This document shows positions 3 through 48,380 of a stretch of 63,150 bases of DNA, one piece after another. How positions within the stretch are numbered: the stretch's first letter is position 1; every line of letters starts with the position of its first letter. Position numbers and translations under genes: made by a program. Where the stretch lies: positions 1 through 63,150 of the IMG/VR virus record IMGVR_UViG_3300045974_000110. The stretch is one strand, 5' to 3'. Below the pieces are notes generated by a model. It worked only from the letters and a program-made list of their open reading frames with translations, made no database searches and was not told the DNA's origin. The DNA is from a virus (Duplodnaviria; Caudoviricetes).

Positions 3-278
3 ACCGGCACCTCGCTGGTCATGACCACCTCCACCGCCGGTGTCGCCGGTGTCTCGGACGGTCGCCAGACCGCCGCGAACATCGTCGGCCTGCTCGACAC
101 CTTCCTCCCGTGGACGCTCCTCGAGCGTGACGTCGAGGCAGCGTGTGCGTACACGGCAGTCTGTGTCCAGGCCTGGTGCCTGGAGCTCGACGCCACCGGC
201 CTCGCCTACCAGGCGCTGTCGAACACCACCGCCGATCTGTTGAGGTCTACCAAGACCCTCGACATCCTCTTCAAGTAA
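3..278 (+). CDS. Probable head decoration protein (5' truncated)
   Basis: Frame is open from the window start and lies directly upstream of the major capsid gene; called from position only. Confidence 0.5.
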   Translation, partial: TGTSLVMTTSTAGVAGVSDGRQTAANIVGLLDTFLPWTLLERDVEAACAYTAVCVQAWCLELDATGLAYQALSNTTADLLRSTKTLDILFK

Positions 279-292
279 GGAGCCGAGGAACC

Positions 293-1468
293 ATGACGTT
301 CTCCAAGTTCGCGTCGGGCGGTCTGTCGCAGGACCGACTCGTCCGCAAGGAGGTCTCCCTCGGCACCATTCGGGAGAAGCTCCTCTGGCCGCAGACTCAC
401 ATCGGTCTGTCGATCGCGCCGTTCCTCGACGTGGCGACCGACGACGTGATCTTCGACTACATCAAGGGCGGTCTGTCCGACGGTCTGGCCCCGGCTCGCG
501 CCGAGGACGCCGAGGCCGAGCTGAGCCAGAAGGACGAGGCGCTCTACGGCCAGGGCCGTGCCGCCGTCATCGACTGGTCCATCAAGGACAAGTACACGGC
601 GTCTGACGTCACCCGCTACCGCGAGGCTCTCTACATCGCTTCGGCGACCGAGGGCATCGCGGCTGATGGGATGCCGCTCAACTTTGTGGGCCACACGGTC
701 GACGACTTCCAGACCCGCATGTCGCGCCACGACGCCCTCCGGCGTCGCAAGCTCGACAACCGGATCGAGTGGCTCATCATGACGGCCCTCGAGACCGGCA
801 AGATCACCTACAACGACGGCAAGATCAAGTTCACCGTCGACTACGGTCGCCCGGCGGCTCAGCAGGACCAGGCGCCGGCTTCCGGCACCTACGCCTCGAC
901 GACTCACGACCCCATCGGCGACATCATCGCCATGAACGCCGCTCACTACCTCCAGTACGGCTTCTACCTGCGTCGGGCGCTGTGCTCGCGTGCGTTCCTC
1001 CAGAGCCTCTGGAAGTCGAGCAAGTTCACGGCGATGACCGGCCTCGTGGTCGGTGGCTCGCCCGTCTCCAGCCCGATCGACCCGCTCTACCTGATCAACG
1101 GCTGGAACCCCCAGGCTGCCATCGCGGCAGTCGAGGCTGCGACCCAGGTGAAGTTCATCGAGTACGACTCGGTGTACCGCACCCGTCCGCAGGGCTCGAC
1201 GACCTGGACGAACAACCGCTTCCTCGGAGCGGGCAAGGTCATCTTCATGCCGGACGAGGGCGACCTCGGCGAGATCGACGACACGGCGATCGGCTTCGCC
1301 AAGACCCTCACCTCGCCGCACCCCGAGGGCAACTGGCAGTCGGGCTACTACGAGTGGGAGGACGAGAAGCGCGACCCGTGGCTCCACGTCCGCGGCTCGG
1401 GCATCAAGGCCTTCCCGGTGTTCCCCTACATGGAGTACACCCGCACCTGGAGCGTCACGCTCCCGTAG
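293..1468 (+). CDS. Major capsid protein (lambda gpE-like / HK97 fold)
   Basis: 391 aa from ATG 293 after a purine-rich RBS (AAGGAG...GAGG); LETGKITY..VDYG, DPIGDI and terminal IKAFPVFP resemble capsid-E family; strong GC3 bias; followed by a hairpin. Confidence 0.85.
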   Translation: MTFSKFASGGLSQDRLVRKEVSLGTIREKLLWPQTHIGLSIAPFLDVATDDVIFDYIKGGLSDGLAPARAEDAEAELSQKDEALYGQGRAAVIDWSIKDKYTASDVTRYREALYIASATEGIAADGMPLNFVGHTVDDFQTRMSRHDALRRRKLDNRIEWLIMTALETGKITYNDGKIKFTVDYGRPAAQQDQAPASGTYASTTHDPIGDIIAMNAAHYLQYGFYLRRALCSRAFLQSLWKSSKFTAMTGLVVGGSPVSSPIDPLYLINGWNPQAAIAAVEAATQVKFIEYDSVYRTRPQGSTTWTNNRFLGAGKVIFMPDEGDLGEIDDTAIGFAKTLTSPHPEGNWQSGYYEWEDEKRDPWLHVRGSGIKAFPVFPYMEYTRTWSVTLP

Positions 1469-1923: not shown

Positions 1924-2448
1924 ATGACGTACTCAGCAGTAGCGGACCTGTTGCTTGGTAACGTGCCTCTGCCGACGACGCTGGACCCTGCCAAGTTCGT
2001 GCAGGATGCCGCAGATGAGATCGACAGTCGAATCGGGTTTGTCTATGTGACACCCATTCCCGTCGCATCCATGTCGGCCCCGTCCGAGCGTCCGACTGCC
2101 CTTCTTCTCAAGCGGATCAGCAACTGGCTCGCATCGGGCCGACTGATCCTCGCACTCGACGCAGGCGGTGAGGACTATGCAGTCCACGCCTACGGCCTCA
2201 AGCTCGTCAAGGATGCCTCGGAAGCCATCGACGCGATCTGTTCGCTTCAGGTGATCCTCGAAGGCGCCATGCGACTTGATGGCACGGAGCCACTGACCGG
2301 TCACAAGGCCCGTCCCCTCATTCACAACCTCGACCCGCAGTCTCAGGTCGAGGCGTTCTACGCCTACACCGCAGACCCGCTGGCTTACCGTCCTTACGGT
2401 GAGAACGGTGGACCGTACCGCACAGAGAATGGGAGCGGGATGTGGTAG
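1924..2448 (+). CDS. Head-to-tail adaptor (Mu gp36/DUF1320-like)
   Basis: MTYS..ADL and DAADEIDSRIG..Y..PI pattern; position after capsid. Confidence 0.7.
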   Translation: MTYSAVADLLLGNVPLPTTLDPAKFVQDAADEIDSRIGFVYVTPIPVASMSAPSERPTALLLKRISNWLASGRLILALDAGGEDYAVHAYGLKLVKDASEAIDAICSLQVILEGAMRLDGTEPLTGHKARPLIHNLDPQSQVEAFYAYTADPLAYRPYGENGGPYRTENGSGMW

Positions 2449-3927: not shown

Positions 3928-3939
3928 GAAAGGGTCGCC

Positions 3940-4725
3940 ATGATCGTCCAGATCAGCGGCCTTCCGGGCGCTGGCAAGAGCACTCTTGCCAGCGCCCTGG
4001 CCGCACGCATCAACGCAGTCATCTGGAACGCTGACCGCGTAAGGGACAACCTCTGGCCCGACCTTGGTTTCTCGGTCGAGGCACGGAGCGAGCAGGCTCG
4101 TCGCATGGGGTTCCTTGCGCGCGAGATGGAAGAGCAGGGTCAGACCGTCATTGTCGACTTCGTGTGTCCCACGGGTCGGACTCGTGAGGCGTTCGGTAAG
4201 CCTGACGTGTTCATCTGGGTGGACCGCATCGACGCTGGTCGGTTCCAGGACACGAACCTGCTCTGGGAAGATCCGGAGACCTTCGATGTCAGGATTCCCT
4301 TCGGGCTCACCGTCGACGAAGAGCTCGACCTCATCTTCGCCGAGACTGATCTGGTGGACTGGCGTGCTCCTCATGCTCTCATGCTGGGTCGCTTTCAGCC
4401 TTGGCATGAAGGCCACGAGGCGCTCTATCAAGAGGCGGCTACCCGCACTGGACAGGTTGCTGTCGCTGTACGGGCAACTTCTGGACTGTCCCGAGACCCG
4501 CTGGTTTATGACGATGTGAGGTCGCGGATTCCGCACCACACTGTCATGCAGCTTCCGAACATCACGCACGTCATCTACGGGCGAGATGTCGGCTACGTCA
4601 TCGAGCAAGTTCACCTCGCGCCTGAGATCGAAGAGATCTCCGCAACTGTGAAGCGTAAGGAGCTCGGACTCGTCGGGGCTTCTGCGTGTCACAGTTGCGA
4701 TGGCGGTTGCCACGGAGCTGAGTGA
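3940..4725 (+). CDS. cysC: Adenylylsulfate-kinase-like P-loop kinase fused to an HxGH nucleotidyltransferase domain
   Basis: N-term GLPGAGKST, NADRVR, DLGFS..R..QARR, DFVCP (CysC-like); C-term LGRFQPWHEGH (HIGH superfamily). Confidence 0.8.
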   Translation: MIVQISGLPGAGKSTLASALAARINAVIWNADRVRDNLWPDLGFSVEARSEQARRMGFLAREMEEQGQTVIVDFVCPTGRTREAFGKPDVFIWVDRIDAGRFQDTNLLWEDPETFDVRIPFGLTVDEELDLIFAETDLVDWRAPHALMLGRFQPWHEGHEALYQEAATRTGQVAVAVRATSGLSRDPLVYDDVRSRIPHHTVMQLPNITHVIYGRDVGYVIEQVHLAPEIEEISATVKRKELGLVGASACHSCDGGCHGAE

Positions 4726-5600
4726 TGGCACCCTCGCAGATCCTTCGAGACCTTCTCGGCACCCGCGCGCTGCACGTCAGCTCGCACAGTGACAACAGGG
4801 TTCTCACGCTCAAGGACTACGTCTGGTCGATCAAGGGACTCACAACTCCTCGCGGCATGGCATTCGGACCTGACACGCTGGCCGTGGTGGCGAAGGACGG
4901 CATCCACTGGTTCAGTAACATCAACGGTACTGAATCAGCGATCTTTCCCGTCATCGACCCTGCGAGTCACGAGATGACTATCCAGGCTGATGGATCTGTC
5001 ATCGTCTGTTCACCGGCGAGTTCTTCACTCGTGAGGTACAACATCCAGACTGGTTCTTCGACACTCTGGACCGTTCCTGGCGTTGACGTGGGAACGACCG
5101 ATGCTCGCTCCTGGGTCAATGGAGTCTGTCTCGAGAATGACATGCCTGCGTATGTCACAACCCTCGGGATTGGTAATGCTCCAGACATGTGGCGCATTGA
5201 GGCTGCAGCATCTCGTGGTGCGCTGATCGACGCGCGGACCAACGAGATCGTTCTCCAGAACTTGTTCTTCCCGCACACTCCAACCCTCGTCGGTACGACT
5301 GTGTACTTCCTCAACAGTGGTCATGGACAGGTCTGCAAGTGGACCCCAGGCGACATGGACTACACAGTTATCGCTGATCTCGGTGGGTGGACGCGCGGAC
5401 TCCACCAACTTGACTCCACACACTTCGCAGTCGGCGTATCACAGGGTCGAGTTACGGCTTTCCCGAACCTCACGACTGATCCACTGGCTCAGCCTGGTAT
5501 CGCCATCGTGGACATCACGACAGGTGCTCGTGTAGGATTCGAGCCACTGGACGTTCAGGAGATCTTCGACATCGAGATCGGATCGGCAGTTCTGTTGTGA
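4722..5600 (+). CDS. TIGR03032/DUF4915-like protein
   Basis: PRGMA, NGVC..P.YVT, WR..RGALID, PHTP, LNSG.G, GWTRGL, GVSQGR and terminal EIFD match the TIGR03032 motif order as I recall it. Confidence 0.7.
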   Translation: MMAPSQILRDLLGTRALHVSSHSDNRVLTLKDYVWSIKGLTTPRGMAFGPDTLAVVAKDGIHWFSNINGTESAIFPVIDPASHEMTIQADGSVIVCSPASSSLVRYNIQTGSSTLWTVPGVDVGTTDARSWVNGVCLENDMPAYVTTLGIGNAPDMWRIEAAASRGALIDARTNEIVLQNLFFPHTPTLVGTTVYFLNSGHGQVCKWTPGDMDYTVIADLGGWTRGLHQLDSTHFAVGVSQGRVTAFPNLTTDPLAQPGIAIVDITTGARVGFEPLDVQEIFDIEIGSAVLL

Positions 5601-5872
5601 CACCTGAGGAGCAGCACGCGAGCGAGATCGCAGCGGCCCTCTCTGCGCTAGGTGAGCACACCTTTCGCAAGGGGTCTGTTCTCGTTCGCGTGTCTGGCTT
5701 CTACTCGGATGGTCCGCAGTGGACAGTCGAGAACGCATACGCTCTTTATGAGGGCGTTCCAGTCGCGCTCAATACTCCCCTTCACTTCGTCAACGCACTC
5801 CACAACGGACAGCCCGTAGAAGCAGCGTATGACATGATCGCTGGAGTCGTTCGCAGAACTGTTGGTGTGTAG
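5597..5872 (+). CDS. Hypothetical protein
   Basis: Overlaps both neighbours. Confidence 0.6.
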   Translation: MTPEEQHASEIAAALSALGEHTFRKGSVLVRVSGFYSDGPQWTVENAYALYEGVPVALNTPLHFVNALHNGQPVEAAYDMIAGVVRRTVGV

Positions 5873-8082
5873 TGGCTACTTACACCATTTACCAGTCAAC
5901 TCCAACTGGCAACAACATCCGTGTGAACCAGACTTACAACGGTGTGTATACAGACACATATCTTCAGTCCCTTACTCAGAATCAGGCCCTGCACGCAATC
6001 GGTGGAGATAAGTCTGGTAATACCTGGGATATCGACAGAAGTTCTGCTGCCATCTTTTCCATTCCCACGTTGGCAGCTGGTGAGCGTCTTGTTGATGCTG
6101 GATTCTTCATCAGAGATCCTTACAATGGCATCATCTCTCAACTGGCAATCCACGCAGCGAATGTTGGCACGAGTATTCAGAACTATGACTCCACTTGGAG
6201 TCTTGGTACTACTCTTGTAGCCAATCAGATCTTCAACTACCTGGCCGATACTCCAATTGGCCCTTCCGTAAATGCCAACTGGTCTGCTCTACAGAGTTGG
6301 TATGAGTCCGGATCTGGAACAGACAAAGCTGTAATCTTTCACGACGACAATGTTGGTACTGGAACAAACCAGCTCGGTGGACCCTCGTGGTCTACTTCGT
6401 TTAAACCGCACCTTACAGCTACTACGATTATCGGTGCCACCTTTTCGACTTCAGGAACTGCCACTGGAGTTGCGTGGGATGCCTCGATAACTTCAAACGC
6501 AATCACTCCGCCTGCTGGTGCAGCCTCTGCTACTGGAACTGCGTACAACCCCACCGTAACACTGACTGTACCTGTTCCTCTGATTCGATCTTCTGTCAAG
6601 AAGTATGGAGCACCAGGCAGCAGTACCGTTTCGTTCACAGATGCAGACTTTCCTGTCGCTCCACAGACTGGTGACTACATCGTTGCCATAGTGGAGTTTG
6701 TCGACCTTACCTACGGCTACGACTATAAGACAACGATTACGACTGGTAATGGTCTTACAACCAGGACAATGACATCCAGGACTGGTACTGCCTCACTTGC
6801 CGCAAATGGAATGGAGATCTTTGGAGACTGGTGGACATCTGGAGTAACTCGTACTTGGGGTCTTTACGGTGAGATCTGTGTTACTCTGTTCTGTGTCTAC
6901 AACGTCAATACGACAACTCCAATAGCAGGTGCCATCGCTGCTGCAGGTGGACCTCCGTATGTGACAACGACAGTACCCGGAACACTTGACCTCGCTGGTT
7001 ACATTACAGGCGGGTACTACTACAACTACACAGAGTTGTACACCAACTCTTCGGTCTATTACGGAACACCTTACTACCACTTTTGCTCAAAGGAGCAGTA
7101 CAATCCAGGCAGTACCCTTGCTCCGCACTACGCGAACAATATCTGGCAAGGCATTATCGCACTCAACTATGGCGCACCGACTGGTGTTAGTCCGAGTGCT
7201 GTAGATGCAGCTGGTACTGGTACTGCATACGATGCGACTGTCACGACCACTACCTCGGCAGTCAATGCTACTGCAGTCGATGCGGCAGGTGTTGGTACTT
7301 CCTACGATGCGCCGATCCAGATCCTGGTCAATGATACTGGTGCAGCCTCAACTGGTGTGGCGCAGACTCCTACGCCTGCGATGCTCGTCAACGATGCTGG
7401 TGCTACTGCTACTGGTACTGCATACGACGCGGCTGCTACGACTGCAGCACTTACGAACGCGGCGGCAGTCGATGCAGCAGCAACTGGTACGGCTTACGAC
7501 GCAACAGTCACGATCCTGGCCAACACGGCGACGAGCACGGCGACTGGTACGGCGGGAGACGTGGCACCGTCCGTGTCCGTGGCTGACACCGGGGCCACGG
7601 GTGCCGGTACGGCGTACGCACCGGGTCTCTCTGGCTCCCTGTCCGCGCCGGGGCTAGATGCTGCGTCGCTAGGTACAGCGTTTGACGCCACCGTGTCCAC
7701 GATCGTATCTTGGACCGCAGAAGCCGCCACAGCGACGGGTACTGCCAACGACGCGACGATCTCCCTAGTCGTTCAGACGTTCGCAAGTGCTGAGGTAGCA
7801 CTCGCAACGGGTGTCGCCGGTGACCTGAGTCAGACCGTTCTGGCGAACGCGAGTACCGCCGCCGCGAGTGTGACAGCCGACAATGCGTCTGCGCTACTTT
7901 ACATCTACTCGGGGATCGCAAGTATCTCGGGACTTTCTTACGATCCCGGCTACACCGCGAGCGCGAACCTCGCAGCCGAGGTAGCCCTGGGATCTGGTGC
8001 GGCGGGAGATGTCACCGTGGCGTCGACTGACCGATCGAATGCCAAGCGCGGCTTCGGAGTCGTCCGGACGAGGTTCTCATGA
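5872..8082 (+). CDS. Large Thr/Ala-rich repeat protein, putative virion fibre/appendage
   Basis: 736 aa; about 13 A-T-G-T-A-Y-D-A-T-V-like repeats around two aromatic-rich globular domains. Confidence 0.65.
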   Translation: MATYTIYQSTPTGNNIRVNQTYNGVYTDTYLQSLTQNQALHAIGGDKSGNTWDIDRSSAAIFSIPTLAAGERLVDAGFFIRDPYNGIISQLAIHAANVGTSIQNYDSTWSLGTTLVANQIFNYLADTPIGPSVNANWSALQSWYESGSGTDKAVIFHDDNVGTGTNQLGGPSWSTSFKPHLTATTIIGATFSTSGTATGVAWDASITSNAITPPAGAASATGTAYNPTVTLTVPVPLIRSSVKKYGAPGSSTVSFTDADFPVAPQTGDYIVAIVEFVDLTYGYDYKTTITTGNGLTTRTMTSRTGTASLAANGMEIFGDWWTSGVTRTWGLYGEICVTLFCVYNVNTTTPIAGAIAAAGGPPYVTTTVPGTLDLAGYITGGYYYNYTELYTNSSVYYGTPYYHFCSKEQYNPGSTLAPHYANNIWQGIIALNYGAPTGVSPSAVDAAGTGTAYDATVTTTTSAVNATAVDAAGVGTSYDAPIQILVNDTGAASTGVAQTPTPAMLVNDAGATATGTAYDAAATTAALTNAAAVDAAATGTAYDATVTILANTATSTATGTAGDVAPSVSVADTGATGAGTAYAPGLSGSLSAPGLDAASLGTAFDATVSTIVSWTAEAATATGTANDATISLVVQTFASAEVALATGVAGDLSQTVLANASTAAASVTADNASALLYIYSGIASISGLSYDPGYTASANLAAEVALGSGAAGDVTVASTDRSNAKRGFGVVRTRFS

Positions 8083-8600
8083 CATCCGGCTGGATCGACA
8101 TCGAGATCACCGGAGATACAAAGGGTGTCGAAGCGATGCTCGCTTGGCTTGACACAAGTGTATCGGGTCCAGGTCTTGTTGCGTTCCTCAACGGCAAGGT
8201 CGGACCGTGGCTTCACCAGCGCGCTGAAGCCAGGTTTCGTGGAGAAGGCGACGATGTTACGGGTCCGTGGGCGCCACTCAAGCCTGCCACTCAGCGCATC
8301 CGTGCCTCCAAGGGATTCTCCCCGGCTCACCCGATCAACATCCGGACTGGTGAGATGGAGAGGTACATCCTAGGTGGTACGTTCCAGGCTTCCATTCCGT
8401 CATCCGGTGGTGCTACACTAAGCTTCCCTGGTTCCGGCCAGGGTGGATCGAAAGAACTTCAAGAGAAGATGCGGACTGCCCAGCAGGGTAAGACGCAACC
8501 GAATACCGTGGCTCGTCCTGTACTCGGGGTTAATGATAAAGATCTCGAGTTTGTCCTGTTCGAGCTTGCCCTGCACATCCAGAGAGGAGGAACGCCTTGA
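8079..8600 (+). CDS. Virion morphogenesis / tail completion protein (Mu gpG-like)
   Basis: RF..EG....WAPLKPAT and ARPVLG motifs. Confidence 0.75.
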   Translation: MTSGWIDIEITGDTKGVEAMLAWLDTSVSGPGLVAFLNGKVGPWLHQRAEARFRGEGDDVTGPWAPLKPATQRIRASKGFSPAHPINIRTGEMERYILGGTFQASIPSSGGATLSFPGSGQGGSKELQEKMRTAQQGKTQPNTVARPVLGVNDKDLEFVLFELALHIQRGGTP

Positions 8601-12360: not shown

Positions 12361-15300
12361 GTGACCGGACACTTGAACGCATACATGAACATCCAAGTCC
12401 GGCTTCTGTCGGCTAGCGCACAGGCTCAGATCAAAGCGCTCGAGAAGGAAATCGCTCGTCTGCGAGCAGAGATAGGTGCTACTGGTGCAGCCAGTAGGAG
12501 CCTGTCAAACAACGCCTTCTCCACTGGAAGTATCGTCAAGTGGGGCTCCCAGCTTCAGTGGGCTGGCCGTCAGCTCAGCTACAACTTCACGCTACCAATC
12601 GTGGCTGCCGGAGCCGCTTCGACCAAGTTCGCTCTAGATAACGAGAAGGCGATTACTCGCCTCACGAAGGTCTATGGCGACATCGGATTCGCACACACGA
12701 CTTCTGAGGTTCAGGCTCTACGCGGCGCGTTCCGAGTGCTGTCTGAAGAGTTCGCAATCAACCAGGCAGACGTCATCAACATCGGCGCGTCCTGGGCGGC
12801 TGCTGGTGTCTCTGGTCTTGCGCTTGCGAAGGCAACAAAGCTCACCCTGACAACGATGGTCCTCGGTGAGATCGACGCAGCCAAGGCAACAGAGTCTCTG
12901 ATTGCCATCCAGGCACAGTACCGACTCAGTACTGACCAGCTCTACTACGCCATCGCACAGCTCAACATCATCGAGAACCAGACTGGTACTTCACTCGCTG
13001 GTCTCATCGACGCGATGTCTCGTTCTGCTGGTACTGCACGCGCTGCTGGTATCGACATCCGACACCTCGGTGCCATGATTGCAGCGATGACGCCTGCAGC
13101 CGGTAGTGCGGCTCAGGCTGGTAACGCACTCAAGACGATCATCAGCCGACTCCTTGCCCCGACCAAGGATGCCTCGGCACTCCTCGGTGCGATGGGTATC
13201 CACGTCAACAGCCTTACTTGGCAGTCGTCGAACGCTTCGGATCGCCTGGTAACACTTGCTACAACCTTCAACAAGTTGTCTGACTCGCAGAAGGCTGTCG
13301 TATCTTCGACTCTCGCCTCGCGCTTCCAGATCAACAAGTTTGAAGTTCTCATGGACGCCATCATCACCAAGGGCTCCTTCTACCACCGTGCCCTCGACGC
13401 CACGACCAATAGCACTGAGGTTCTCAAGGTTGCGAGCCAGGAGCTCACAACCGTCCTAACCAGCCAACCTGCTGTGTTCGATCGAGCGATGACCGTTCTG
13501 AAGAACGCAATGGCCCAGGTCATTGTTCCTCTCCTGCCTCTCATCCTGGGTATCGCCAACACGATCGCCGAGGCGGCAAAGGCATTTGCGAACATGGACC
13601 CGCGGGTCCAGAAGCTGATCCTTACTGGACTCGTTCTCCTCGCTGTGCTTGGTCCGATCCTCCAGCTCACGGGTGCCCTGGGCATCTTCATGGGTGAGCT
13701 TGGGCACATGTTTGTCCGCGTCGGAAACATGGTCTGGTTCCTCATCGAGCCTCTGTGGAAGCTTGCTTCGTTCGCCTGGTCTGCTATTGCCTGGGGATTC
13801 GAGTTTGTTCTCACAGCAGCCGAGGTAATGGTAACTGGAACGCTTGTCGCTCTCGGATGGTTCACCAAGGGTCTCACGATTGCGATGAAGGCAGGCGCTG
13901 TCATCGTTCGTGATGGCATGATCCTGATCGGACTCATCTTTGAGGGACTCGGTCCGCTACTCATGGCGACGGGCGCTTGGCTGGCAACGGTCTGGACCGT
14001 AGCACTCGAGGAACTCGTAGTCGTCACAAAGGTTGCCTGGGGGGCAATCAAGGCTATCTGGATGACCGGAGCGTTCGGTACTGCCGTAGCCGGCCTCTGG
14101 ACTCGGATGTTCTCAACACTCCAGTCCATCACCTGGGTGTTCCTGTCTGCCGTAAAGGCGACATGGACCTTGTTCTACGGTGGAGTGGCAACTCTCAGCG
14201 AACTGTTCTTCTACACACTGAAGGACATCTGGATTGCCGGTGGAGCGGCGCTCAAGGCCATCACAACCTTCATGCTGGGTGTTGTAAACGCAATCTGGAC
14301 TGCCCTCATGGGTACGACACTCGCCATCGCTGGCGTCGCATGGACGGCCATGAAGGCACTCTGGATGCGTGCGTACACCACGCTGCAGGCGTTGACGTGG
14401 ATCTTTACCTCCGCCGTGAAGGCCACATGGACAATCTTCAGCGCCGGGCTCGCTACGATCAGCCAGCTGCTGTTCTACACCTTGAAGGACATCTGGGCAT
14501 TCGGGGGAAGGGCACTCCAGGTCGTAACAGCACTTACCCTGGGCGTCATCAACACGATCTGGCTCGCGTTCTCGGTTGGCATGTCGCTCCTTGTCCAGAA
14601 GATCTGGCTCGTGATTCGGGCGATCTGGTTCGCAGGTTCCGTCGCACTTGAGGCTATCTCCACAGCGATGTGGACTACCATGAAGGCGATCTGGCTCGTC
14701 GGCTCTACCGTTCTCCCTGTGATCCTTTCCCGAGCTGTTATCGCTATGGGGATGGTCTGGAAGGCGGGAATGGCTGCGCTGACCACACTCACCACGGCTA
14801 TGATTCCCAACATCCTCAAGGCGCTCGCGTGGCTGGGTCGTGGAGCACTCGCCGTAGTGACTGGACCTTGGGGCATAGCAATCGGTGCCGCGATTCTGAT
14901 CTTCTTCTTGTTCAAGGATCAGATCGTACAGATCATCAAGAACATCATCAACTACTTCCAGAATCTTCCGGTTGGAGTTGTTCAGGCCTTCCAGCCTCTC
15001 GTTGGGTTCTTCAACAACGCAGTAGGGTGGGTCATCAAGGCCTTTAACATGCTTCCCCAGGGTGTTCAGAATGCCATGATGGCAGTCCTGAACATCGTCA
15101 AGACTGTAGCCATGAAGGTCTACGAATGGTTCTCGTACCTCAACCCATTCGCACACCACTCGCCTTCGCTTGTTGAGAACGTCACCAAGGGTCTTGGTGT
15201 CGTCCGCGATCAGTTTGCGAAGCTCGAGTCGATCAAGGGGGTGATCCAGTCTGTCTACTCTGACATCAAGAAGTTCGGTCAGCTGATCGCAAACTTCAAG

Positions 15301-18258
15301 GGCGGCATGGCGACCGTCAAGATGGCAGAGGATCTCAAGCTCGTTAAGAAGTACGCACCCGAGGCCGCTGGTGCGTACAGAATGCTGGCAGCTGATATCA
15401 AGAAGCTCCAGCCGATTCTCGATGGGCTGTCTGCTGCAATCGAGAAGCAGCAGGCGGTAGTAGATGGCTGGAAGGCAAAGCTCGACACTGCTGATGCTGC
15501 CCTGCAGACTCAGAAGAATAAGCTTCAGGCACTTCAGGATGTTGCCAGCGGCTACAAGGACAAGATGGACGCTGCCCAGGCAGCACTGGATGGGTTCGCC
15601 AATACTCCCATCCAGGGCATGAAGGCGATGGACGACGCGATCTTCGCCAACGAGATGGCCAGCAAGAAGCTGCGCCTCGAGATGATGAGGATGGAAGATC
15701 TCGGAGGTACACTCGACGACCTCAAGAACAAGATGAGTTCGCTCAACGGTGAGATCGAGCTGCTTCAGGGGACTCAGAAGGATCTCCAGAATGCTGGTGC
15801 CGGTAGCGATATCACCTCGTTCTATGACCAGCAGATCGCAGCCCTTCAGGGTCAGAAGAACGCTACCACTGACAACATGAAGGCGCTCAACGACATGCAG
15901 AAGGCGCTCGATGCGCTGGATCGTCAGGCCCAGGAGATGGACCTGGAGAAGTCGCTGGCCTTCGATCCGCTGACTCGTCAGATCCAGGACGCCGCGAACG
16001 CAATGAAGGAACTGCCCTTCAGCGAGATCATGGCTGGTATCACCGCAAGCAAGGCCGAGATCGACAAGTACACTCAGGCTTACAACGATGCGAACAAGGC
16101 TGTCGCAGACCAGCAGGTCGTGGTGGACGCTGCACAGAAGGCGCGCGATGCCATCAGTGCTTCATACGACACCGAAGCCGCAAAGCTCGCCAAGCTGAAG
16201 GATTCCTACGACTCGGTTGCTCAGGCTATGCGCGACGCACAGTCCGCGCTTGATGACCTGATGAACGCAGTCAACTCCAAGAACAGCGCCGTACAGGCAG
16301 CGGCTTCTGGAGCAACGTCTGGGTCCGTTGCCAACTTCAATGCAGCCAAGGGCGGAAACTTCCCCGACGTCGGTGGAACATCTAAGCTCGGTCGCGAGGG
16401 TGGACTTCAGGACCAGGGCAAGGCACTTGACGAGTGGGTTAAGAAGCAGCAAGAGGACATCGGCAAGATGTTCGGCGGCATGGACATGTTCGGCCCGATC
16501 CGAGAGTACTGGGACAAGTTCACCGCTTGGTGGAATACGACCGTTACTCCGATGCTGGGTGCCGCTGGAGACTTCTTCGGCCACATCTTTGATAACGTCA
16601 ACGGTGGTGACATCGTCAGTAAGGTCACCGGATTCCTCGAGCCAGTTAAGAAGATCTGGGATGGATTCTGGGGCCTGTTCGGCGGCGACGTCATGGATGT
16701 TGTTGGCCAGGTCATCGGATTCTTCCAGAACATGTGGAGTCAGATCCAGCCCGAGCTTGAGCCCCTCATGGAAGCGATTAAGACTTTCGCCGAGAAGATC
16801 CTCAAGCCCTGGGCTGCGATTATCGGCGTCGAGCTTGTAGCTGCCTGGAAGATCCTTACAGCGGTATTCAAGAACGTCCTTAGGCCTGTCCTTGACTGGA
16901 TCGTCACCACCGTTAAGAGTGTCCTGCGAGTGTTCGAGGGACTACTCAACTTCATCACGGGTGTATTCACGGGCGACTGGTCGCGTGCCTGGGATGGCAT
17001 CAAGACCGTGTTCCTCGCCCTGTGGGACTTCATCCTCGCAACCCTCAAGGGTATCGGTGGAGTGATCTGGGGCGTCGTCTCGGGCCTCGTAGTTGGAGTC
17101 GTGGAGCTCTTCAAGTGGCTCTGGTCGCACGCGGGTAGCGTCATCACCAGTTTCATCGCAGACATCATCAACTGGTTCCTCAACATTCCGAACAAGGTCA
17201 ACGAACTGATCTGGAAGTTCATCCAGGGAGTCATTGGATTCTTCCAGCACCTGTTCGATGTTCTCGTTGGGCACTCGATCATTCCAGATATGATAAACGC
17301 GATTGTCGAGTGGTTCAAGGGACTTCCTCAGCGAGCACTCGATGCGATCACCGCGCTGCTTGGATTCATCGTCACCTTCGTGACCAACGTCTGGAACGGT
17401 TGGGTCGAGACGAACGTCCGCATGTGGACTGCGATCATCCAGTGGTTCAAGGGTCTCCCACAGAAGATCATCGACGGACTCTCCACCCTCTTGACGAACA
17501 TCAAGAACTTCGCCAGTACGGTCTGGGATAACTTCAAGAGCGCTTCAACTACGGCGTTTGTTGCAGTCGTGACCTGGGTTCAGGGTATCCCACAGAAGAT
17601 CGTGAACGGTGTCGGTAACCTTATCAACCTCATCAAGGGGCCTGGTGCCGACTTCGTGAGTGGTCTTCTCACTGGCGCAAAGAACTGGTGGCACAACGTC
17701 ACCGATTGGGTCAGCGACATCCCGAACAAGATCACGACTGCGCTGGGCACCATGAAGGATCTTCTCAAGAACGCGGGTATCTCGATCATTACCGGATTCT
17801 GGGATGGCCTCAAGGAGAAGTGGAAGGAGGCATCCAAGTGGATTGAGGGTCTCGGTCAGTGGATCTCTGATCACAAGGGTCCAAAGGAATACGACCTGAA
17901 GCTTCTTGTTCCGAACGGTAACTGGATCATGGACGGTCTATCGACCGGCCTTGGGCAGGGTATGGCGGGTGTAAAGTCCACCGTCGCGGACGTAAACCGT
18001 TCTCTGCAGACAATCGGGGCCATCGACCCGCGGACGCTACAGACCCCCTCCATCGCCGCGCTGAACGGCATGGCGAACGCAGCGGCGAACCGCGAGCGTG
18101 CCGCCCTTGCCTCCCAGCCCGGACCTGTGTACGCTGGTCAGACGACCGGGGATCGTACTATCGTCATCAACGGCGACTTGAGCTTCCCGAACATCAACAG
18201 CTCGTCGGATGCCAAGACGTTCATCGCTAACCTTGAAGCCCTCGCGGGAGGGAGCTAA
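12361..18258 (+). CDS. Tape measure protein (TP901-family core); exact start uncertain (12361/12373/12385)
   Basis: 1965 aa; AGNALKTIISRL motif, coiled coils, periodic Trp repeats. Confidence 0.95.
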   Translation: MTGHLNAYMNIQVRLLSASAQAQIKALEKEIARLRAEIGATGAASRSLSNNAFSTGSIVKWGSQLQWAGRQLSYNFTLPIVAAGAASTKFALDNEKAITRLTKVYGDIGFAHTTSEVQALRGAFRVLSEEFAINQADVINIGASWAAAGVSGLALAKATKLTLTTMVLGEIDAAKATESLIAIQAQYRLSTDQLYYAIAQLNIIENQTGTSLAGLIDAMSRSAGTARAAGIDIRHLGAMIAAMTPAAGSAAQAGNALKTIISRLLAPTKDASALLGAMGIHVNSLTWQSSNASDRLVTLATTFNKLSDSQKAVVSSTLASRFQINKFEVLMDAIITKGSFYHRALDATTNSTEVLKVASQELTTVLTSQPAVFDRAMTVLKNAMAQVIVPLLPLILGIANTIAEAAKAFANMDPRVQKLILTGLVLLAVLGPILQLTGALGIFMGELGHMFVRVGNMVWFLIEPLWKLASFAWSAIAWGFEFVLTAAEVMVTGTLVALGWFTKGLTIAMKAGAVIVRDGMILIGLIFEGLGPLLMATGAWLATVWTVALEELVVVTKVAWGAIKAIWMTGAFGTAVAGLWTRMFSTLQSITWVFLSAVKATWTLFYGGVATLSELFFYTLKDIWIAGGAALKAITTFMLGVVNAIWTALMGTTLAIAGVAWTAMKALWMRAYTTLQALTWIFTSAVKATWTIFSAGLATISQLLFYTLKDIWAFGGRALQVVTALTLGVINTIWLAFSVGMSLLVQKIWLVIRAIWFAGSVALEAISTAMWTTMKAIWLVGSTVLPVILSRAVIAMGMVWKAGMAALTTLTTAMIPNILKALAWLGRGALAVVTGPWGIAIGAAILIFFLFKDQIVQIIKNIINYFQNLPVGVVQAFQPLVGFFNNAVGWVIKAFNMLPQGVQNAMMAVLNIVKTVAMKVYEWFSYLNPFAHHSPSLVENVTKGLGVVRDQFAKLESIKGVIQSVYSDIKKFGQLIANFKGGMATVKMAEDLKLVKKYAPEAAGAYRMLAADIKKLQPILDGLSAAIEKQQAVVDGWKAKLDTADAALQTQKNKLQALQDVASGYKDKMDAAQAALDGFANTPIQGMKAMDDAIFANEMASKKLRLEMMRMEDLGGTLDDLKNKMSSLNGEIELLQGTQKDLQNAGAGSDITSFYDQQIAALQGQKNATTDNMKALNDMQKALDALDRQAQEMDLEKSLAFDPLTRQIQDAANAMKELPFSEIMAGITASKAEIDKYTQAYNDANKAVADQQVVVDAAQKARDAISASYDTEAAKLAKLKDSYDSVAQAMRDAQSALDDLMNAVNSKNSAVQAAASGATSGSVANFNAAKGGNFPDVGGTSKLGREGGLQDQGKALDEWVKKQQEDIGKMFGGMDMFGPIREYWDKFTAWWNTTVTPMLGAAGDFFGHIFDNVNGGDIVSKVTGFLEPVKKIWDGFWGLFGGDVMDVVGQVIGFFQNMWSQIQPELEPLMEAIKTFAEKILKPWAAIIGVELVAAWKILTAVFKNVLRPVLDWIVTTVKSVLRVFEGLLNFITGVFTGDWSRAWDGIKTVFLALWDFILATLKGIGGVIWGVVSGLVVGVVELFKWLWSHAGSVITSFIADIINWFLNIPNKVNELIWKFIQGVIGFFQHLFDVLVGHSIIPDMINAIVEWFKGLPQRALDAITALLGFIVTFVTNVWNGWVETNVRMWTAIIQWFKGLPQKIIDGLSTLLTNIKNFASTVWDNFKSASTTAFVAVVTWVQGIPQKIVNGVGNLINLIKGPGADFVSGLLTGAKNWWHNVTDWVSDIPNKITTALGTMKDLLKNAGISIITGFWDGLKEKWKEASKWIEGLGQWISDHKGPKEYDLKLLVPNGNWIMDGLSTGLGQGMAGVKSTVADVNRSLQTIGAIDPRTLQTPSIAALNGMANAAANRERAALASQPGPVYAGQTTGDRTIVINGDLSFPNINSSSDAKTFIANLEALAGGS

Positions 18259-32801: not shown

Positions 32802-33369
32802 AGCTCCTCCTCTGGAGTGTCCAGTTCCACATGCCCTTGCCGTTCTTCCACAGGGTCCAGAAGGCCTTGTCCTGCCAGTACTTGGGCCACGTCTGGATCT
32901 GCTTGTGCGCGAGCTTGATGTTGCCGATGGCCTTAGCCATCCTCTTCTGCCAGTATGGCGTCATCTGGTACGCGCCAGCCGCACCTTCCTTGTTGCGGAC
33001 TGTGTAGTCACCGTTCGACTCACGCCAGACGATACACCTACGGATGAGCTCCCAGCGAGGGTAGTAACCCGGCCCGGTGTAGAGGCTGGGCTTGATTCTC
33101 AGCTCGTACTTACTGTCGATCCAGATCCTCTTCGCGGCGTGCGTGAGGCTGTCTGTGACCGGCAGGGTGCTAGGAATCGTCGCGCTGGGGGTGGTCCGCT
33201 GCGTCGGACCAGCGGGGGTAACAGAGGGCGTAGGAACCGCTACGGCGGTCGCTACGGGGCCAACGGTGGGCCGCTGGGACACCGGGGCCACCGTGGAAAC
33301 CGACTCGGCAGCGGGGCTGCACGCGGCTACGGCGACAACCGCCATCGCTAGCGAGAGAAGGCGCCTCAT
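32785..33369 (-). CDS. Lipoprotein with Rpf/transglycosylase-like lysozyme domain
   Basis: MRRLLSLAMAVVAVAAC lipobox, PT linker, CIVWRESNGDY..N..GAAGAYQM..W..QD. Confidence 0.75.
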   Translation of the reverse strand: MRRLLSLAMAVVAVAACSPAAESVSTVAPVSQRPTVGPVATAVAVPTPSVTPAGPTQRTTPSATIPSTLPVTDSLTHAAKRIWIDSKYELRIKPSLYTGPGYYPRWELIRRCIVWRESNGDYTVRNKEGAAGAYQMTPYWQKRMAKAIGNIKLAHKQIQTWPKYWQDKAFWTLWKNGKGMWNWTLQRRSCGFSR

Positions 33370-34355
33370 TCGGCAGCTCCCCTCTTCGACACCCTGTCGT
33401 CGAAGAGCTTGAAGGCCTCGTTGGAGTCCTGGTTCAGCATGAAGTGAACGACTGCAAAGCAGTGCCACGCCGCGCACGTCAGGTGGTAGACAGGCTGGCC
33501 GGCGAGCTCGGTCATCTCGGCATCGAGGTCTTCACCGCGCATGTGCAGGTTGATGTGGCGACGAGCAGCCGCGATCGACTTGCTCCACTCGTAGCCACGC
33601 ATCCAGTTGTTGTCGTCGTACTTCTTGGCACCCGCCCCGTAGAGGACTGCGAGGTTGTGCTCTGCGTCAGCCGGGATCAGGTCGAAGCGTCCGATCTTCA
33701 CACCCTTCTCACCACCCGTGGACGACACACTGCGAACCTCGCCCGTGCCACCGACGATCTCGAAGAGCGGGTAAACCAGTTCTTCCTGCCCGATGAGCGT
33801 CAGGATGCGTGCGTACTCACGGATGCCGTCTACCCGACGACGCGCGTCGGGCAGATCGGTCTGGTTCCACGGGCGATCCACCAGGAACGTATCCACACCA
33901 GCCGCCACCAGTGCGTCGTAGTTGGAGAGCTTGTCCTCGATGAAGTAGTCCGTGGGGACGACGGTCTTGTCGCCGCTGAAGTGGAGCTCGTCGTAGTTGA
34001 GCTCATGGAAGTCAAGCCACTCGACCGTGAGTTGCTGACTGACTTCTGGTGTCGTCCCGAATGCTCGATCCGTGATGATGATGATCTCGTGACCGAGACC
34101 GATGATGATGTCGAAGGCCTCCTTGACGCCGGGGCGAACCGGGCCAGAGAACACGAAGCCAGCGTCGGCTCCGTCATGGCACATCTGGAGGAAGTCCTCC
34201 AGGGACAGGCCCCAGCCCTCGTAGAAGGCCCACTCCTTTGGCTCGCCGTGGGCGTGGAAACCCTCGGGGAACTCGTAGCCCTTGTGCAGCGCGTACCGGA
34301 GCAGGGATGCTGCGAAGTCGAAGCACACCCCGTCCAGGTCGATTCCTACTCGCAT
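33366..34355 (-). CDS. HAD 5'(3')-deoxyribonucleotidase fused to DUF5664 dATP/dGTP diphosphohydrolase-like domain
   Basis: IDLDGV, FIEDK, RPWN; C-term RFDLIP..GAKKYDDNNWMRG..RRH..GED.D.E..HL. Confidence 0.85.
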   Translation of the reverse strand: MRVGIDLDGVCFDFAASLLRYALHKGYEFPEGFHAHGEPKEWAFYEGWGLSLEDFLQMCHDGADAGFVFSGPVRPGVKEAFDIIIGLGHEIIIITDRAFGTTPEVSQQLTVEWLDFHELNYDELHFSGDKTVVPTDYFIEDKLSNYDALVAAGVDTFLVDRPWNQTDLPDARRRVDGIREYARILTLIGQEELVYPLFEIVGGTGEVRSVSSTGGEKGVKIGRFDLIPADAEHNLAVLYGAGAKKYDDNNWMRGYEWSKSIAAARRHINLHMRGEDLDAEMTELAGQPVYHLTCAAWHCFAVVHFMLNQDSNEAFKLFDDRVSKRGAAE

Positions 34356-43400: not shown

Positions 43401-43846
43401 AGGTCGAGTCCATTCGCTCGGGAGTAGAGCCTGTGGAGCTTGTCCTCGAGTAGGGCAAGCGCCTCGCCTTGGTGATCGGTGAGGTGTTCGATTGCTCCGA
43501 GTGCCGTGACGGCCACGTCGAGGAGCTCTTGAATCACCTTGTCCATGTCGTTCGTGACACCCTTGCGAGGGTTCTGACCCGTCGCTCCGATGTAGGCAGA
43601 GATGACCTCGCCGGCCTCTTCGGCTACCTTGGCGAGACGTCCCCAGGTCACCGCCTCGGGGTCACGGTGCTCGTTGCCCTTGTCGATCCACTTCGAGAGC
43701 CAGACAAGGTCAGCCTCGGGTCCGAGGATCGGAAGGTAGATCCCAGCACACTGGTTGAGGTTGTCCTCGCCTGTAGAGCGAAGGTCTCGCCACATGTGGC
43801 CTCGGTGAGGAGTGGTCTGCAGGCAGTCGAGTTGCTTGGCGCTCAC
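43397..43846 (-). CDS. mazG: MazG-like NTP pyrophosphohydrolase
   Basis: KVAEEAGEV..GQNPRKG..ELLDVAVTA. Confidence 0.85.
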   Translation of the reverse strand: MSAKQLDCLQTTPHRGHMWRDLRSTGEDNLNQCAGIYLPILGPEADLVWLSKWIDKGNEHRDPEAVTWGRLAKVAEEAGEVISAYIGATGQNPRKGVTNDMDKVIQELLDVAVTALGAIEHLTDHQGEALALLEDKLHRLYSRANGLDL

Positions 43847-44679
43847 GTCAGATCAACACCCTTCCGCATCTTGTCGATCCCGACGCCGGTGTAGACCTGT
43901 GTAGTCTCGACGCTGCTGTGGCCGAGCAGCTCCTGGACGAGACGAATATCCATCGTCTTGTCGTAGACAGCCGTGGCGAACGTGGCTCGCAGATCGTGGC
44001 TGCTGATGTGGCGCTTGAGGCGTGCCTTCACACCCAGCCGGGTGATCGTACGCCGTGCGCGTCGGTCTGTCATCCCTACGACCGGCGTACCGGGGCCAGC
44101 GATGAAGGCGCGTGCGACAGGTGCGCTCAGTGCGGTCCACGCTTCGACGGACACCGGGACGATGCGGGACTTGTCACCCTTGCCACGGATCGTGAGGGTC
44201 ATCTCGTTCATGTTGATGTCCTCCCGAGTCACGGCGAGTGCCTCGGCGATACGGCACCCACAGAAACCGCACAGGGCGATGAGAGCGGCTTCCTCCTGGG
44301 TCTTGCTGTAGAGGATCAGCTTCCGCACACCGGCGATGCCTTCGGGCAGCGGGTGTGGCATGGACTTGGCGGGTGTCGGTGTCGAGTACTCCTCGAGCGT
44401 CGAACCCCAGCCTGCCCACTTTGCGAACGTACGGAGCGTGGTGAGTCGCCGGCCTGTGGTCTTGGGTGCGACGACGCGCCTGTTGGTCTGGAGCCAGTCC
44501 AGCGCTGCGTCCTCGAAGTCATCCTGGTCGAGGCCGGTCGGGTGGAGCAGGAGGAACTGTGCGAGATCGGAACGGTAGGCACGAGTCGTGTGCTCACTGC
44601 GCCCCCGCTGGTCGAGGTAGACGACGAACTTGTCTGCGCTTGCTGCGTCGAGTCGATCGGCGCGCTGTTCGTTTGCCAT
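43843..44679 (-). CDS. Tyrosine recombinase (XerC/D-like)
   Basis: T.RAY.SDL, GCRIAE, RGKGDK.R, HDLR, LLGH, TTQVY. Confidence 0.92.
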   Translation of the reverse strand: MANEQRADRLDAASADKFVVYLDQRGRSEHTTRAYRSDLAQFLLLHPTGLDQDDFEDAALDWLQTNRRVVAPKTTGRRLTTLRTFAKWAGWGSTLEEYSTPTPAKSMPHPLPEGIAGVRKLILYSKTQEEAALIALCGFCGCRIAEALAVTREDINMNEMTLTIRGKGDKSRIVPVSVEAWTALSAPVARAFIAGPGTPVVGMTDRRARRTITRLGVKARLKRHISSHDLRATFATAVYDKTMDIRLVQELLGHSSVETTQVYTGVGIDKMRKGVDLT

Positions 44680-44705
44680 GTCTTTCCTTTCGATCGGTGT
44701 CGAAG

Positions 44706-44978
44706 TCAGTCTTTCATTCGCCATTTGGCTTCGAGATCTTCTTCCAGTGTGGCCTTGCGCGTTGGCGCAGTCCAATCGTAGAAGTAGTGCTCGTCCTTCA
44801 GGAGACAGTCGCGGCACAGCCAAGCGACGTTGGTCGCCTTCTTTGCGCTGGAACCTTCTCCCATCGGTCGGAAGTGGATCTGCTTGACTGTCAACAGATC
44901 GCGCGCTTCCATGTCTGATCCCGCACCGGGCTTCTCACCACAGCGCGTGCAGCGGTAGTCGTACTTGCGACCCTTCAT
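44706..44978 (-). CDS. Zinc-ribbon hypothetical protein
   Basis: CTRC..LCRDC. Confidence 0.6.
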   Translation of the reverse strand: MKGRKYDYRCTRCGEKPGAGSDMEARDLLTVKQIHFRPMGEGSSAKKATNVAWLCRDCLLKDEHYFYDWTAPTRKATLEEDLEAKWRMKD

Positions 44979-48098: not shown

Positions 48099-48380
48099 TT
48101 ACCAGTAGTGCTTGTCGTGCAGCTCGCAAGGCCGGGGACGTAGACAAATGTATCTCTCGCCTCGAGACGAGATGCCTACGAAGAAGGTACACTTCCCCTC
48201 CTTCCAGCTCTCGTCCTCTTCCTCTGTGAGATCGTCTACGTCTGGAACGGGCAGCGGTGGGCCACCCGCCCCAGCACAGTAGGTGATCTCCCAGGTGATC
48301 TTCTCGTAGCCGTGGAGTCGGAGCATCCCATCCTTGGTCAGGGAGAGCTCCTTTCCACACTCGGGACACATACCTGTCAT
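48099..48380 (-). CDS. Cys-rich hypothetical protein
   Basis: CPEC..H..C; coupled to vWA gene. Confidence 0.6.
   Translation of the reverse strand: MTGMCPECGKELSLTKDGMLRLHGYEKITWEITYCAGAGGPPLPVPDVDDLTEEEDESWKEGKCTFFVGISSRGERYICLRPRPCELHDKHYW

Follow-up and report, generated by a model that had tools for sequence, protein, structure and literature searches.

The window, a 63,150-base virus record from IMG/VR that is estimated to be 81% complete, encodes a 261-residue protein with two enzymatic domains within a run of virion genes. The gene (3940-4725, plus strand) combines an N-terminal domain resembling CysC, the adenosine 5'-phosphosulfate (APS) kinase, with a C-terminal HxGH nucleotidyltransferase (NT), and is called kinase-NT here. 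It is flanked by a phrog_644 gene and a DUF4915 gene. A sequence-only reading of the window had singled out this open reading frame (ORF) by its motifs GLPGAGKST, DLGFS..R..QARR and GRFQPWHEGH, had placed it among head and neck genes, and had proposed that the two domains together could make an activated sulfate donor for virion modification. Motifs and coordinates are as it described, and capsid, adaptor-like and Neck1 genes are identified around the gene. In this high-GC window, ORFs were taken from all six frames and then clustered. Judged by its sequence, kinase-NT is not a chance frame, because many proteins match it and its motif residues are invariant family-wide. The protein matches phrog_10255, labelled 'kinase' in PHROGs, over its full length (E 5.5e-54). 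Its AlphaFold2 model, computed from an alignment of 54 diverse full-length relatives (A1), has a predicted local distance difference test score (pLDDT) of 93.6 and a predicted template modelling score (pTM) of 0.84.

The N-terminal domain resembles APS kinases

The N-terminal domain is homologous to APS kinases but has a lid that is shortened. The P-loop GLPGAGKST occupies residues 7-15 and is followed by N30-A-D32-x-x-R35 (N30-A-D32-R-V-R35), by DLGFSVEAR (41-49) within the segment DLGFSVEARSEQARR (41-55), by DFVCPT (72-77) and by RFQDTN (101-106). N30-A-D32-R-V-R35 and DLGFSVEAR align with D-G-D-x-x-R and (D/N)LGFS...R of solved APS kinases; the first Asp of D-G-D-x-x-R is Asn in the window protein and Asp or Asn in its relatives. 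Across 190 family kinase domains, G7, G12 and K13 are conserved in 100%, and K13, D32, R35, F44, R49, P77, R82, D104 and T105 in 96-100%. The P-loop lysine, the catalytic D-x-x-R motif and the F..R substrate motif are kept, and APS kinase activity would be expected.

APS kinases are the best sequence matches in a profile search of the Protein Data Bank (PDB; 1.2e-17 to 1e-13) and make up all top Foldseek matches of the kinase domain. In VIA-align, residues 1-144 align to M. tuberculosis CysC (4rfv_A) with a Z-score of 17.7 and a root-mean-square deviation (rmsd) of 1.8 A over 127 residues. Four other APS kinases score Z 16.0-17.2, gluconate kinase 15.1 and other P-loop kinases 12.5 or less. 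CysC proteins (PF01583, TIGR00455) thus share with the window kinase the fold and the P-loop, D-x-x-R, (D/N)LGFS..R and F(I/V)(S/C)P motifs. They differ in having a full lid: the Pfam APS_kinase match (58 bits, cut-off 21.1; residues 2-84) covers profile positions 4-91 of 152 only. The sequence-only reading had envisaged comparing both domains with CysC, ATP sulfurylase (Sat) and NadM/nicotinamide mononucleotide adenylyltransferase (NMNAT). This comparison bears out the CysC fold of the kinase (Foldseek, VIA-align) and places the NT nearest to NMNAT, not Sat.

The C-terminal domain is a minimal nucleotidyltransferase

The NT domain spans about 105 residues (approximately 140-250), compared with 164-181 in solved NMNATs and 374-383 in the Sat ORFs of cellular loci, and it has no counterpart of the N-terminal PUA-like domain of Sat. 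Its motifs are GRFQPWHEGH (150-159), R178, DP (186-187), PNI (206-208), YGRDVGY (213-219) and ISATVKR (233-239). The second NT signature, ISATVKR, and the YGRDVGY loop are additions to the sequence-only reading. R178 and Y-G-R-D-V-G-Y are invariant and specific to this NT family.

NMNATs are the sole significant relatives of the NT half in the PDB profile search (1f9a, 4.7e-11; 2qjt, 3.7e-10). The NCBIfam NMNAT models TIGR01527 and NF002243 reach 17.3-22.4 bits against cut-offs of 127-341 and match residues 145-179 only, Pfam CTP_transf_like matches weakly (residues 148-178), and the Pfam Sat family PF01747 has no match in the window protein at E<=0.1. When the protein was tested for the Sat motif QxRNPxHxxH, QPWHEGH alone resembled it. 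The invariant G214-R215-D-V-G218 loop lies between HxxH and ISAT, and hhalign does not align it to the GRDHAG of Sat. Modelled alone, the domain adopts an HxGH nucleotidyltransferase fold (pLDDT 84.8). In sequence and predicted fold the NT has archaeal/NadM NMN adenylyltransferases as its nearest relatives, and it does not qualify as a canonical ATP sulfurylase.

NadM-type NMNATs (1f9a, 1ej2, 2qjt, 2qjo) share GRFQPxHxGH and ISxTxxR with the window NT, which is about 60 residues shorter and has the invariant R178 and YGRDVGY loop of its own. Unlike NMNATs, the NT family is paired with an APS-kinase or APS-kinase-like domain and often stands beside sulfotransferases.

Kinase and nucleotidyltransferase occur together across a viral family

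At E<=1e-3 the family comprises 1215 proteins among 90% clusters and 2830 representatives in the 50% library, and the ESM Atlas clusters show it to be overwhelmingly viral. We scanned the six-frame ORFs of 242 sources in all, which include 156 IMG/VR, 80 metagenome and 3 cultured-phage loci and 2 genome contigs, with a hidden Markov model (HMM) for each domain. The NT domain is present in 201 loci. It is fused to the kinase in the order kinase-NT at 106 of these and in the order NT-kinase at 37, and the two are adjacent separate genes at a further 44 (kinase then NT) and 3 (NT then kinase). The NT is fused to or adjoins a kinase in 190 of the 201 loci; several of the 11 loci with NT alone are at contig ends.

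Proteins of the NT-kinase class contain an entire canonical CysC (Pfam APS_kinase 211.9 bits, positions 2-151 of 152). These NT-CysC proteins keep all CysC motifs including the lid KGLYKKAR and are carried by about 37 marine metagenome loci, with 62-99% identity. In the NT tree, the window and its closest relatives (L006-L008) form a clade with SH-like support of 0.98, which is sister to the NT-CysC clade (0.996); support for the joint node is moderate (0.81). The NT-CysC fusions and these sister clades tie the mini-NT evolutionarily to APS kinases, whether trimmed or canonical. Members linked to a sulfotransferase (n=37) share their catalytic motif residues with all other members, the window protein included, so that one chemistry is expected family-wide.

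Some members (L110, L111, L114; P0128, P0236, P0247) have a predicted membrane segment. One such form has the NT alone, preceded by a hydrophobic stretch of about 75 residues, and another has DUF4118 fused to the kinase or kinase-NT. These may be membrane-anchored proteins or gene-calling fusions.

Sulfotransferase genes adjoin the pair

Of the 201 NT loci, 51 have a sulfotransferase ORF of the Sulfotransfer_2 or Sulfotransfer_3 type in their fetched flanks. The distance is at most 300 nt at 25 of these loci, at most 1500 nt at another 12 and larger at the remaining 14. The sulfotransferase ORFs fall into two neighbour clusters with Pfam-confirmed representatives (Sulfotransfer_3/_1, E 3e-14; Sulfotransfer_2, E 2.7e-10), from which phage sulfotransferase HMMs were built. 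By fetch set, 1 of 76, 45 of 80 and 5 of 39 NT-bearing loci are linked to a sulfotransferase, together with 0 of 5 cultured phages and genome contigs and none in the window. The first set was fetched with peptide patterns of the window itself, and the second with the NT domain of an NT-CysC protein. After redundancy was collapsed at 90% NT identity, 21 of 78 clusters have a sulfotransferase-linked member, in several clades and in every gene arrangement. The sequence-only reading would have lost ground if homologues had no link to structural or sulfotransferase genes. The first locus set seemed to point that way, and the 51 linked loci of the full survey do not.

A GLPRSGSTL loop is conserved in the adjoining sulfotransferases, and R109 and S117 are invariant; we take these to be the 5'-phosphosulfate and 3'-phosphate binding motifs of enzymes that depend on 3'-phosphoadenosine 5'-phosphosulfate (PAPS). 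Their expected donor is therefore 3'-phosphorylated. Starting from the sulfotransferase, 16 of 80 loci (the best 80 of at least 579 IMG/VR loci by similarity to the sulfotransferase alignment) have kinase and NT within 10 kb, and one further locus has the kinase at the contig end. At least 3 of these 16 are contigs already in the NT locus set.

None of these 80 viral sulfotransferase loci has the canonical sulfurylase motif, and the canonical Sat motif is absent from the viral loci scanned. Among all loci, 22 ORFs have QxRNPxHxxH and GRDHAG. Each of them has a canonical CysC gene as neighbour and none the NT, and at 11 of them the CysC gene is followed by Sulfotransfer_3. The arrangement of Sat, a gap of about 1 kb, canonical CysC and Sulfotransfer_3 is seen in metagenome loci L203, L208, L211, L213, L218, L225, L226, L228, L231, L234 and L235. 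From this cellular Sat-CysC-sulfotransferase module it appears that the phage NT takes the position held by Sat.

Among 50,697 cultured-phage records, 8 match the Sulfotransfer_3 query, and NT relatives amount to 288 stretches in 2.9 million viral contigs. Kinase and NT co-occur with sulfotransferases at between a fifth and a quarter of loci, which, judged without a formal statistic, is far more than chance would give. Two cell assemblies with the pair, a Pelagibacteraceae single-cell assembly and a Verrucomicrobiales metagenome-assembled genome, also have Sulfotransfer_3 matches above cut-off. Neither of these incomplete assemblies has an ATP-sulfurylase match above cut-off; CysDN was not searched for.

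Several viral sulfotransferases (L354:9992-11776, L358:9992-11698, L322, L349, L355, L362, L368) are 568-594 amino acids long and have a conserved C-terminal domain of about 320 residues. The consensus of this domain includes LEGGLGDQIH, which we presume to resemble a motif of GT9 glycosyltransferases, and a PDB profile search with it found nothing. Kinase-NT follows about 0.6-1.1 kb downstream in L358 and L359. Identity of this C-terminal domain with DUF4915 was considered and rejected (hhalign probability 0.12%; Pfam covers the sulfotransferase part only).

A putative minimal PAPS synthase

The bifunctional animal PAPS synthases PAPSS1/2 and bacterial Sat-CysC fusions (such as Aquifex aeolicus 2gks) resemble kinase-NT in carrying two activities in one chain. 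In PAPSS the kinase precedes the transferase, as in the window protein: 1x6v aligns to the kinase at 53-229 and to the NT model at 401-623. The kinases of these enzymes are homologous to that of the window (25-36% identity over 127-144 aligned residues), and PAPS-dependent sulfotransferases are associated with both the PAPS synthases and the kinase-NT family. The transferases differ. That of the window has about 105 residues, compared with roughly 350-400, and is without the PUA-like domain, QxRNP, GRDHAG or a significant Sat profile match; the whole chain measures 261 residues compared with 546 in 2gks_A and 630 in 1x6v_B. Canonical Sat (PF01747) nevertheless belongs to the same HxxH superfamily as the NT and has the same motif order of HxxH, G-R-D loop and IS(G/A)T..R, with 94 residues from HxxH to GRD compared with 64 in the NT. 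Both hold the same position in a module beside kinase and sulfotransferase.

The loci establish an obligate pairing of kinase and NT, the NT-CysC fusion, and an association with PAPS-type sulfotransferases. We consider it fairly probable that the 261-residue protein is a minimal two-step phage PAPS synthase in which the mini-NT carries out the sulfurylase step. The activated sulfate donor proposed from sequence alone is strongly supported by the sulfotransferases and NT-CysC fusions; a weaker part of that proposal is the nature of the C-terminal domain, which is NMNAT/PPAT-like (PPAT, phosphopantetheine adenylyltransferase) and not a recognisable ATP sulfurylase. We infer sulfurylase activity of the NT from the gene context and from a structural argument: the NT lacks the acceptor-binding parts and has two invariant arginines that are new. 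Sulfate as the acceptor, PAPS as the product and use in late infection would follow the same line of reasoning.

The mini-NT would bind ATP through HxGH and ISxTxxR and transfer AMP to sulfate, yielding APS. The invariant R178 and R215, the latter in the GRD loop, could hold the small anion where fold relatives carry larger acceptor-binding elements. The kinase would then phosphorylate the 3'-OH of APS to give PAPS. In PAPS synthases the kinase step pulls the unfavourable sulfurylase reaction forward, and fusion of the two steps could do the same here. The product would feed sulfotransferases; about one in four of the related loci examined carries a phage gene for such an enzyme. As kinase-NT is co-translated with DUF4915 in the late virion operon, PAPS is probably made late. 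It is probably used on a phage or host-envelope macromolecule.

A broader proposal is tentative, and we would not quite back it at present. The NT of about 105 residues could represent a third, minimal class of ATP sulfurylase that arose from the NMNAT branch without orthology to Sat or CysDN, and with the lid-less kinase it would make up the smallest known PAPS synthase. The purpose could be an essentially phage-specific sulfation of glycoconjugates or proteins of the virion or host surface, even in SAR11-type hosts that do not activate sulfate, and in the window the enzyme would act from a late virion operon with DUF4915. Literature searches at the level of abstracts returned no paper on the kinase-NT fusion, DUF4915/TIGR03032 or a phage PAPS pathway.

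Evidence against a PAPS synthase and alternative functions

Several observations weigh against a PAPS synthase. Neither Sulfotransfer_1, _2 and _3 nor the phage-derived sulfotransferase HMMs find a match in the window, and 150 of the 201 NT loci have no sulfotransferase in their fetched flanks; 30 of these 150 adjoin S-adenosylmethionine (SAM) synthetase and phosphoribosyltransferase genes instead. The fetched DNA of L006, L007 and L008 contains no sulfotransferase, Sulfotransfer_3 is absent from the whole records of all three, and Sulfotransfer_1 and _2 are absent from that of L008. Their kinase-NT neighbours are glycosyltransferases, a GH18 enzyme and a LamG protein. Two complete genomes with the gene behave similarly: Xylella phage Sano has no match to Sulfotransfer_1, _2 or _3, and Clavibacter phage 33 has none to Sulfotransfer_1 or _2, the sole families sought there. 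Among cultured phages with the gene, DLP_6 alone has a Sulfotransfer_2 gene, at a distance of 90 kb. The domains themselves also raise doubts. The kinase reaches 56.5 bits against the cut-off of 138.7 for the NCBIfam apsK equivalog TIGR00455 and is without a lid, some 20 residues around KGLYKKAR being missing compared with the canonical CysC of P0230. The NT of the window has DP at 186-187 where the family has NP. Its best VIA-align scores are to archaeal NMNAT 1f9a (Z 8.5), PPAT (8.2) and NadM (7.8). ATP sulfurylases score lower, with Z 6.8 for Thermus thermophilus 1v47_B (110 residues, rmsd 4.4) and 4.3-5.0 for 2gks, 1r6x, 1j70 and 4dnx. Foldseek finds no match at E<=1e-3 for the NT domain alone, and when the NT profile (A3) is compared by hhalign with one built from 10 Sat ORFs (A4), the alignment is confined to 19 columns at HxxH (E 0.055, with a probability of about 1%).

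The pair of kinase and NT might make a different adenylylated or cytidylylated and then 3'-phosphorylated donor, or a nucleotide-activated sugar for nearby glycosyltransferases, which we regard as unlikely. HldE and TagD are models for a sugar- or polyol-phosphate nucleotidyltransferase route, and the phosphoramidate donor of Campylobacter is of the 3'-phospho-NDP-X type (NDP, nucleoside diphosphate), the kinase there being an APS-kinase homologue. HldC, TagD and the cytidylyltransferase Fom1 match the NT fold at Z 6.1-7.1, the window clade neighbours glycosyltransferases (two PF11397 genes in L007, a weak match in L006), DUF4915 is fused to the OGT-like GT41 in 2 of 6 long bacterial ORFs by Pfam, and genes for NAD-dependent sugar epimerases/dehydratases (NAD, nicotinamide adenine dinucleotide) occur in 21 of the 242 sources. 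Such a donor leaves the recurrent fusion to canonical CysC and the sulfotransferase neighbours unexplained, however. The kinase keeps the nucleotide-binding residues of APS kinases, not those of a sugar kinase, and the catalytic residues are alike in the window clade and in the sulfotransferase-linked clades. Sulfotransferase adjacency and CysC fusion are equally unaccounted for if the NT is an NMN adenylyltransferase and the kinase is NadR-like or performs the step to NADP, so that the protein restores NAD during infection. We find this improbable, even though 1f9a is the best NT match in both sequence and fold, the GRFQPxHxGH signature is of the NadM type in NCBIfam, and NAD salvage is a known counter-defence of phages. 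The NCBIfam NMNAT models score far below their cut-offs with approximately the first 35 positions matched, the short domain implies that much of the NMN-binding part is missing, and the kinase is like APS kinase rather than the ribosylnicotinamide kinase (RNK) of NadR.

It is also quite unlikely that the kinase alone serves sulfate activation, turning host APS into PAPS beside an unrelated or regulatory NT, or that the lid-less kinase is itself a regulatory PAPS-binding domain, for which the C-terminal APS-kinase-like domain of fungal ATP sulfurylase is the model. The missing lid and the absence of significant Sat profile similarity beyond HxxH would fit such roles. They sit poorly with an NT that is fused or adjacent to the kinase in nearly all loci (190 of 201) and with invariant catalytic residues in both domains. 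The viral loci scanned, which show no canonical Sat motif, and the two cell assemblies, which show no Sat above cut-off, also speak against such roles. A coenzyme A (CoA) route consisting of PPAT and dephospho-CoA kinase, raised by the PPAT score of the NT, was rejected: dephospho-CoA kinases align to the kinase with Z 10.1-10.8 compared with 17.7 for APS kinase, and the CysC fusion and sulfotransferase context also count against it.

Implications for viral cysC genes

In viromics papers, 'cysC / adenylylsulfate kinase' appears among viral auxiliary genes, and the usual reading is sulfate assimilation. If the kinase-NT family is a self-contained PAPS synthase paired with sulfotransferases, much of the viral cysC signal would reflect sulfation of macromolecules and not sulfur nutrition. 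A single-chain PAPS synthase of 261 residues with a new type of sulfurylase domain would be of enzymological interest and could be of use in PAPS regeneration for the synthesis of sulfated glycans. Sulfation of the virion or host surface would, if true, be a new chemistry at the phage-host interface. The role of phage sulfotransferases is described as unclear in one paper (PMC10580990). A dedicated phage supply of PAPS would make this role testable.

Operon context in the window

Table 1. Features of the kinase-NT operon and of other genes in the window
Feature	Position	Strand	Basis or remark
Major capsid protein	143-1468		virion gene
Head-tail adaptor-like	1924-2448		virion gene
Shine-Dalgarno-like GAAAGGG	3928..3934	+	5 nt 5' of the kinase-NT ATG, directly behind the stop of the preceding gene
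Kinase-NT gene	3940..4725	+	ORF, ATG start, 261 amino acids, two domains
N-terminal APS-kinase-like P-loop domain, shortened lid	3940..4341	+	residues 1-134; Pfam, NCBIfam, PDB profile, fold
C-terminal mini HxGH nucleotidyltransferase (NT)	4357..4689	+	residues 140-250; PDB profile, model, fold
DUF4915 (TIGR03032-type) gene	4722..5600	+	Pfam DUF4915, 119 bits; GTG start
91-residue ORF	5597..5872	+	overlaps its neighbours by 4 nt and 1 nt
736-residue Ser/Thr/Ala/Gly-rich protein	5872..8082	+	about ten A-T-G-T-A-Y-D-A-type repeats
Neck1/tail-completion	8079-8600		virion gene
1965-residue ORF, tape measure candidate	12361-18258		size, position, short DNA match to Gordonia phage tape-measure genes
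5'-nucleotidase (NT5C-type) with PF18909 domain	33366-34355	-	329 amino acids; PF18909, 79 bits
Integrase	43843-44823	-	
CobT-type VWA-domain protein	48377-51160	-	927 amino acids
AAA_5 (MoxR/CobS-like) ATPase	52054-53595	-	513 amino acids

The stop codon of kinase-NT overlaps the GTG start of the DUF4915 gene by 4 nt, and the next two ORFs overlap as well. Because successive ORFs overlap in this way, the four genes appear to be coupled in translation. At third codon positions their G+C is 0.51-0.69, compared with 0.86-0.88 for the capsid and neighbouring core genes. This is compatible with acquired cargo, to which we attach little weight; the tail genes are lower too. Bar weak matches to the phrog_644 protein in L090 and L108, the neighbour genes of the window have no homologues beside kinase-NT at other loci.

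The last two of the coupled ORFs have no family match in Pfam and PHROGs scans. The repeats of the 736-residue protein are spaced 20-40 residues apart and are of the type A-(T/A)-G-T-A-Y-D-A, six of them with Tyr and then Asp, Asn or Ala. From its composition and repeats, the protein may be a virion fibre or decoration protein. We speculate that it could be a target of modification.

The DUF4915 protein is a possible partner in a modification module. Among the structural neighbours listed as ESM Atlas clusters, DUF4915 is fused to Sulfotransfer_3 (two cluster types), to an Asp/Asn beta-hydroxylase, to TPR domains and to an acetyltransferase. All of its partners decorate proteins or glycans, which is compatible with such a module and does not by itself identify the sulfotransferase of the window. 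The Sulfotransfer_3 fusion is a lead only: it was not reproduced in 4 loci of the phylum Verrucomicrobiota and 30 Pseudomonadota loci, where the phage-derived HMMs drew a blank, and 0 of the 6 long bacterial DUF4915 ORFs are fused to a sulfotransferase. The DUF4915 protein of the window itself has no sequence relative in the PDB, no relatives of greater length, and none in IMG/VR (pattern search) or in cultured phages (tblastn).

Other neighbourhoods

Most family members reside in modules for replication or nucleotide metabolism and not among structural genes, which weakens the idea of virion modification. Neighbours in the first locus set include genes for an SNF2 helicase, SAM synthetase, phosphoribosyltransferase, primase, DnaB, UvsY and Mre11/SbcC-like proteins. 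The same setting is found in cultured Casjensviridae (Sano, Salvo, Clavibacter phage 33) and in DLP_6. In Sano (L002, 3199-3876) and Clavibacter phage 33 (L001, 3118-3828), a gene annotated by the depositors as cysteine dioxygenase lies about 3 kb upstream of kinase-NT in the same early region, and may be a second sulfur-related gene.

A group of 30 IMG/VR loci with a G+C of about 0.33 (L009-L039) has kinase-NT followed by a 91-residue ORF, MetK, a 185-residue phosphoribosyltransferase and conserved unknowns, with no sulfotransferase in the flanks. One of them (L010) has a second kinase paralogue as a separate gene immediately behind the fusion. The two PF11397 'GlcNAc' glycosyltransferase genes of L007 (8787-9752 and 9749-10720, both on the minus strand) lie directly downstream of kinase-NT, on the opposite strand.

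Elsewhere in the window, the NT5C-type 5'-nucleotidase is combined with a dATP/dGTP diphosphohydrolase N-terminal domain (PF18909). In phages that use 2-aminoadenine in place of adenine, this domain is linked with MazZ. The VWA-domain protein and the AAA_5 ATPase form a pair that is common in phages. The integrase gene suggests that the phage is temperate.

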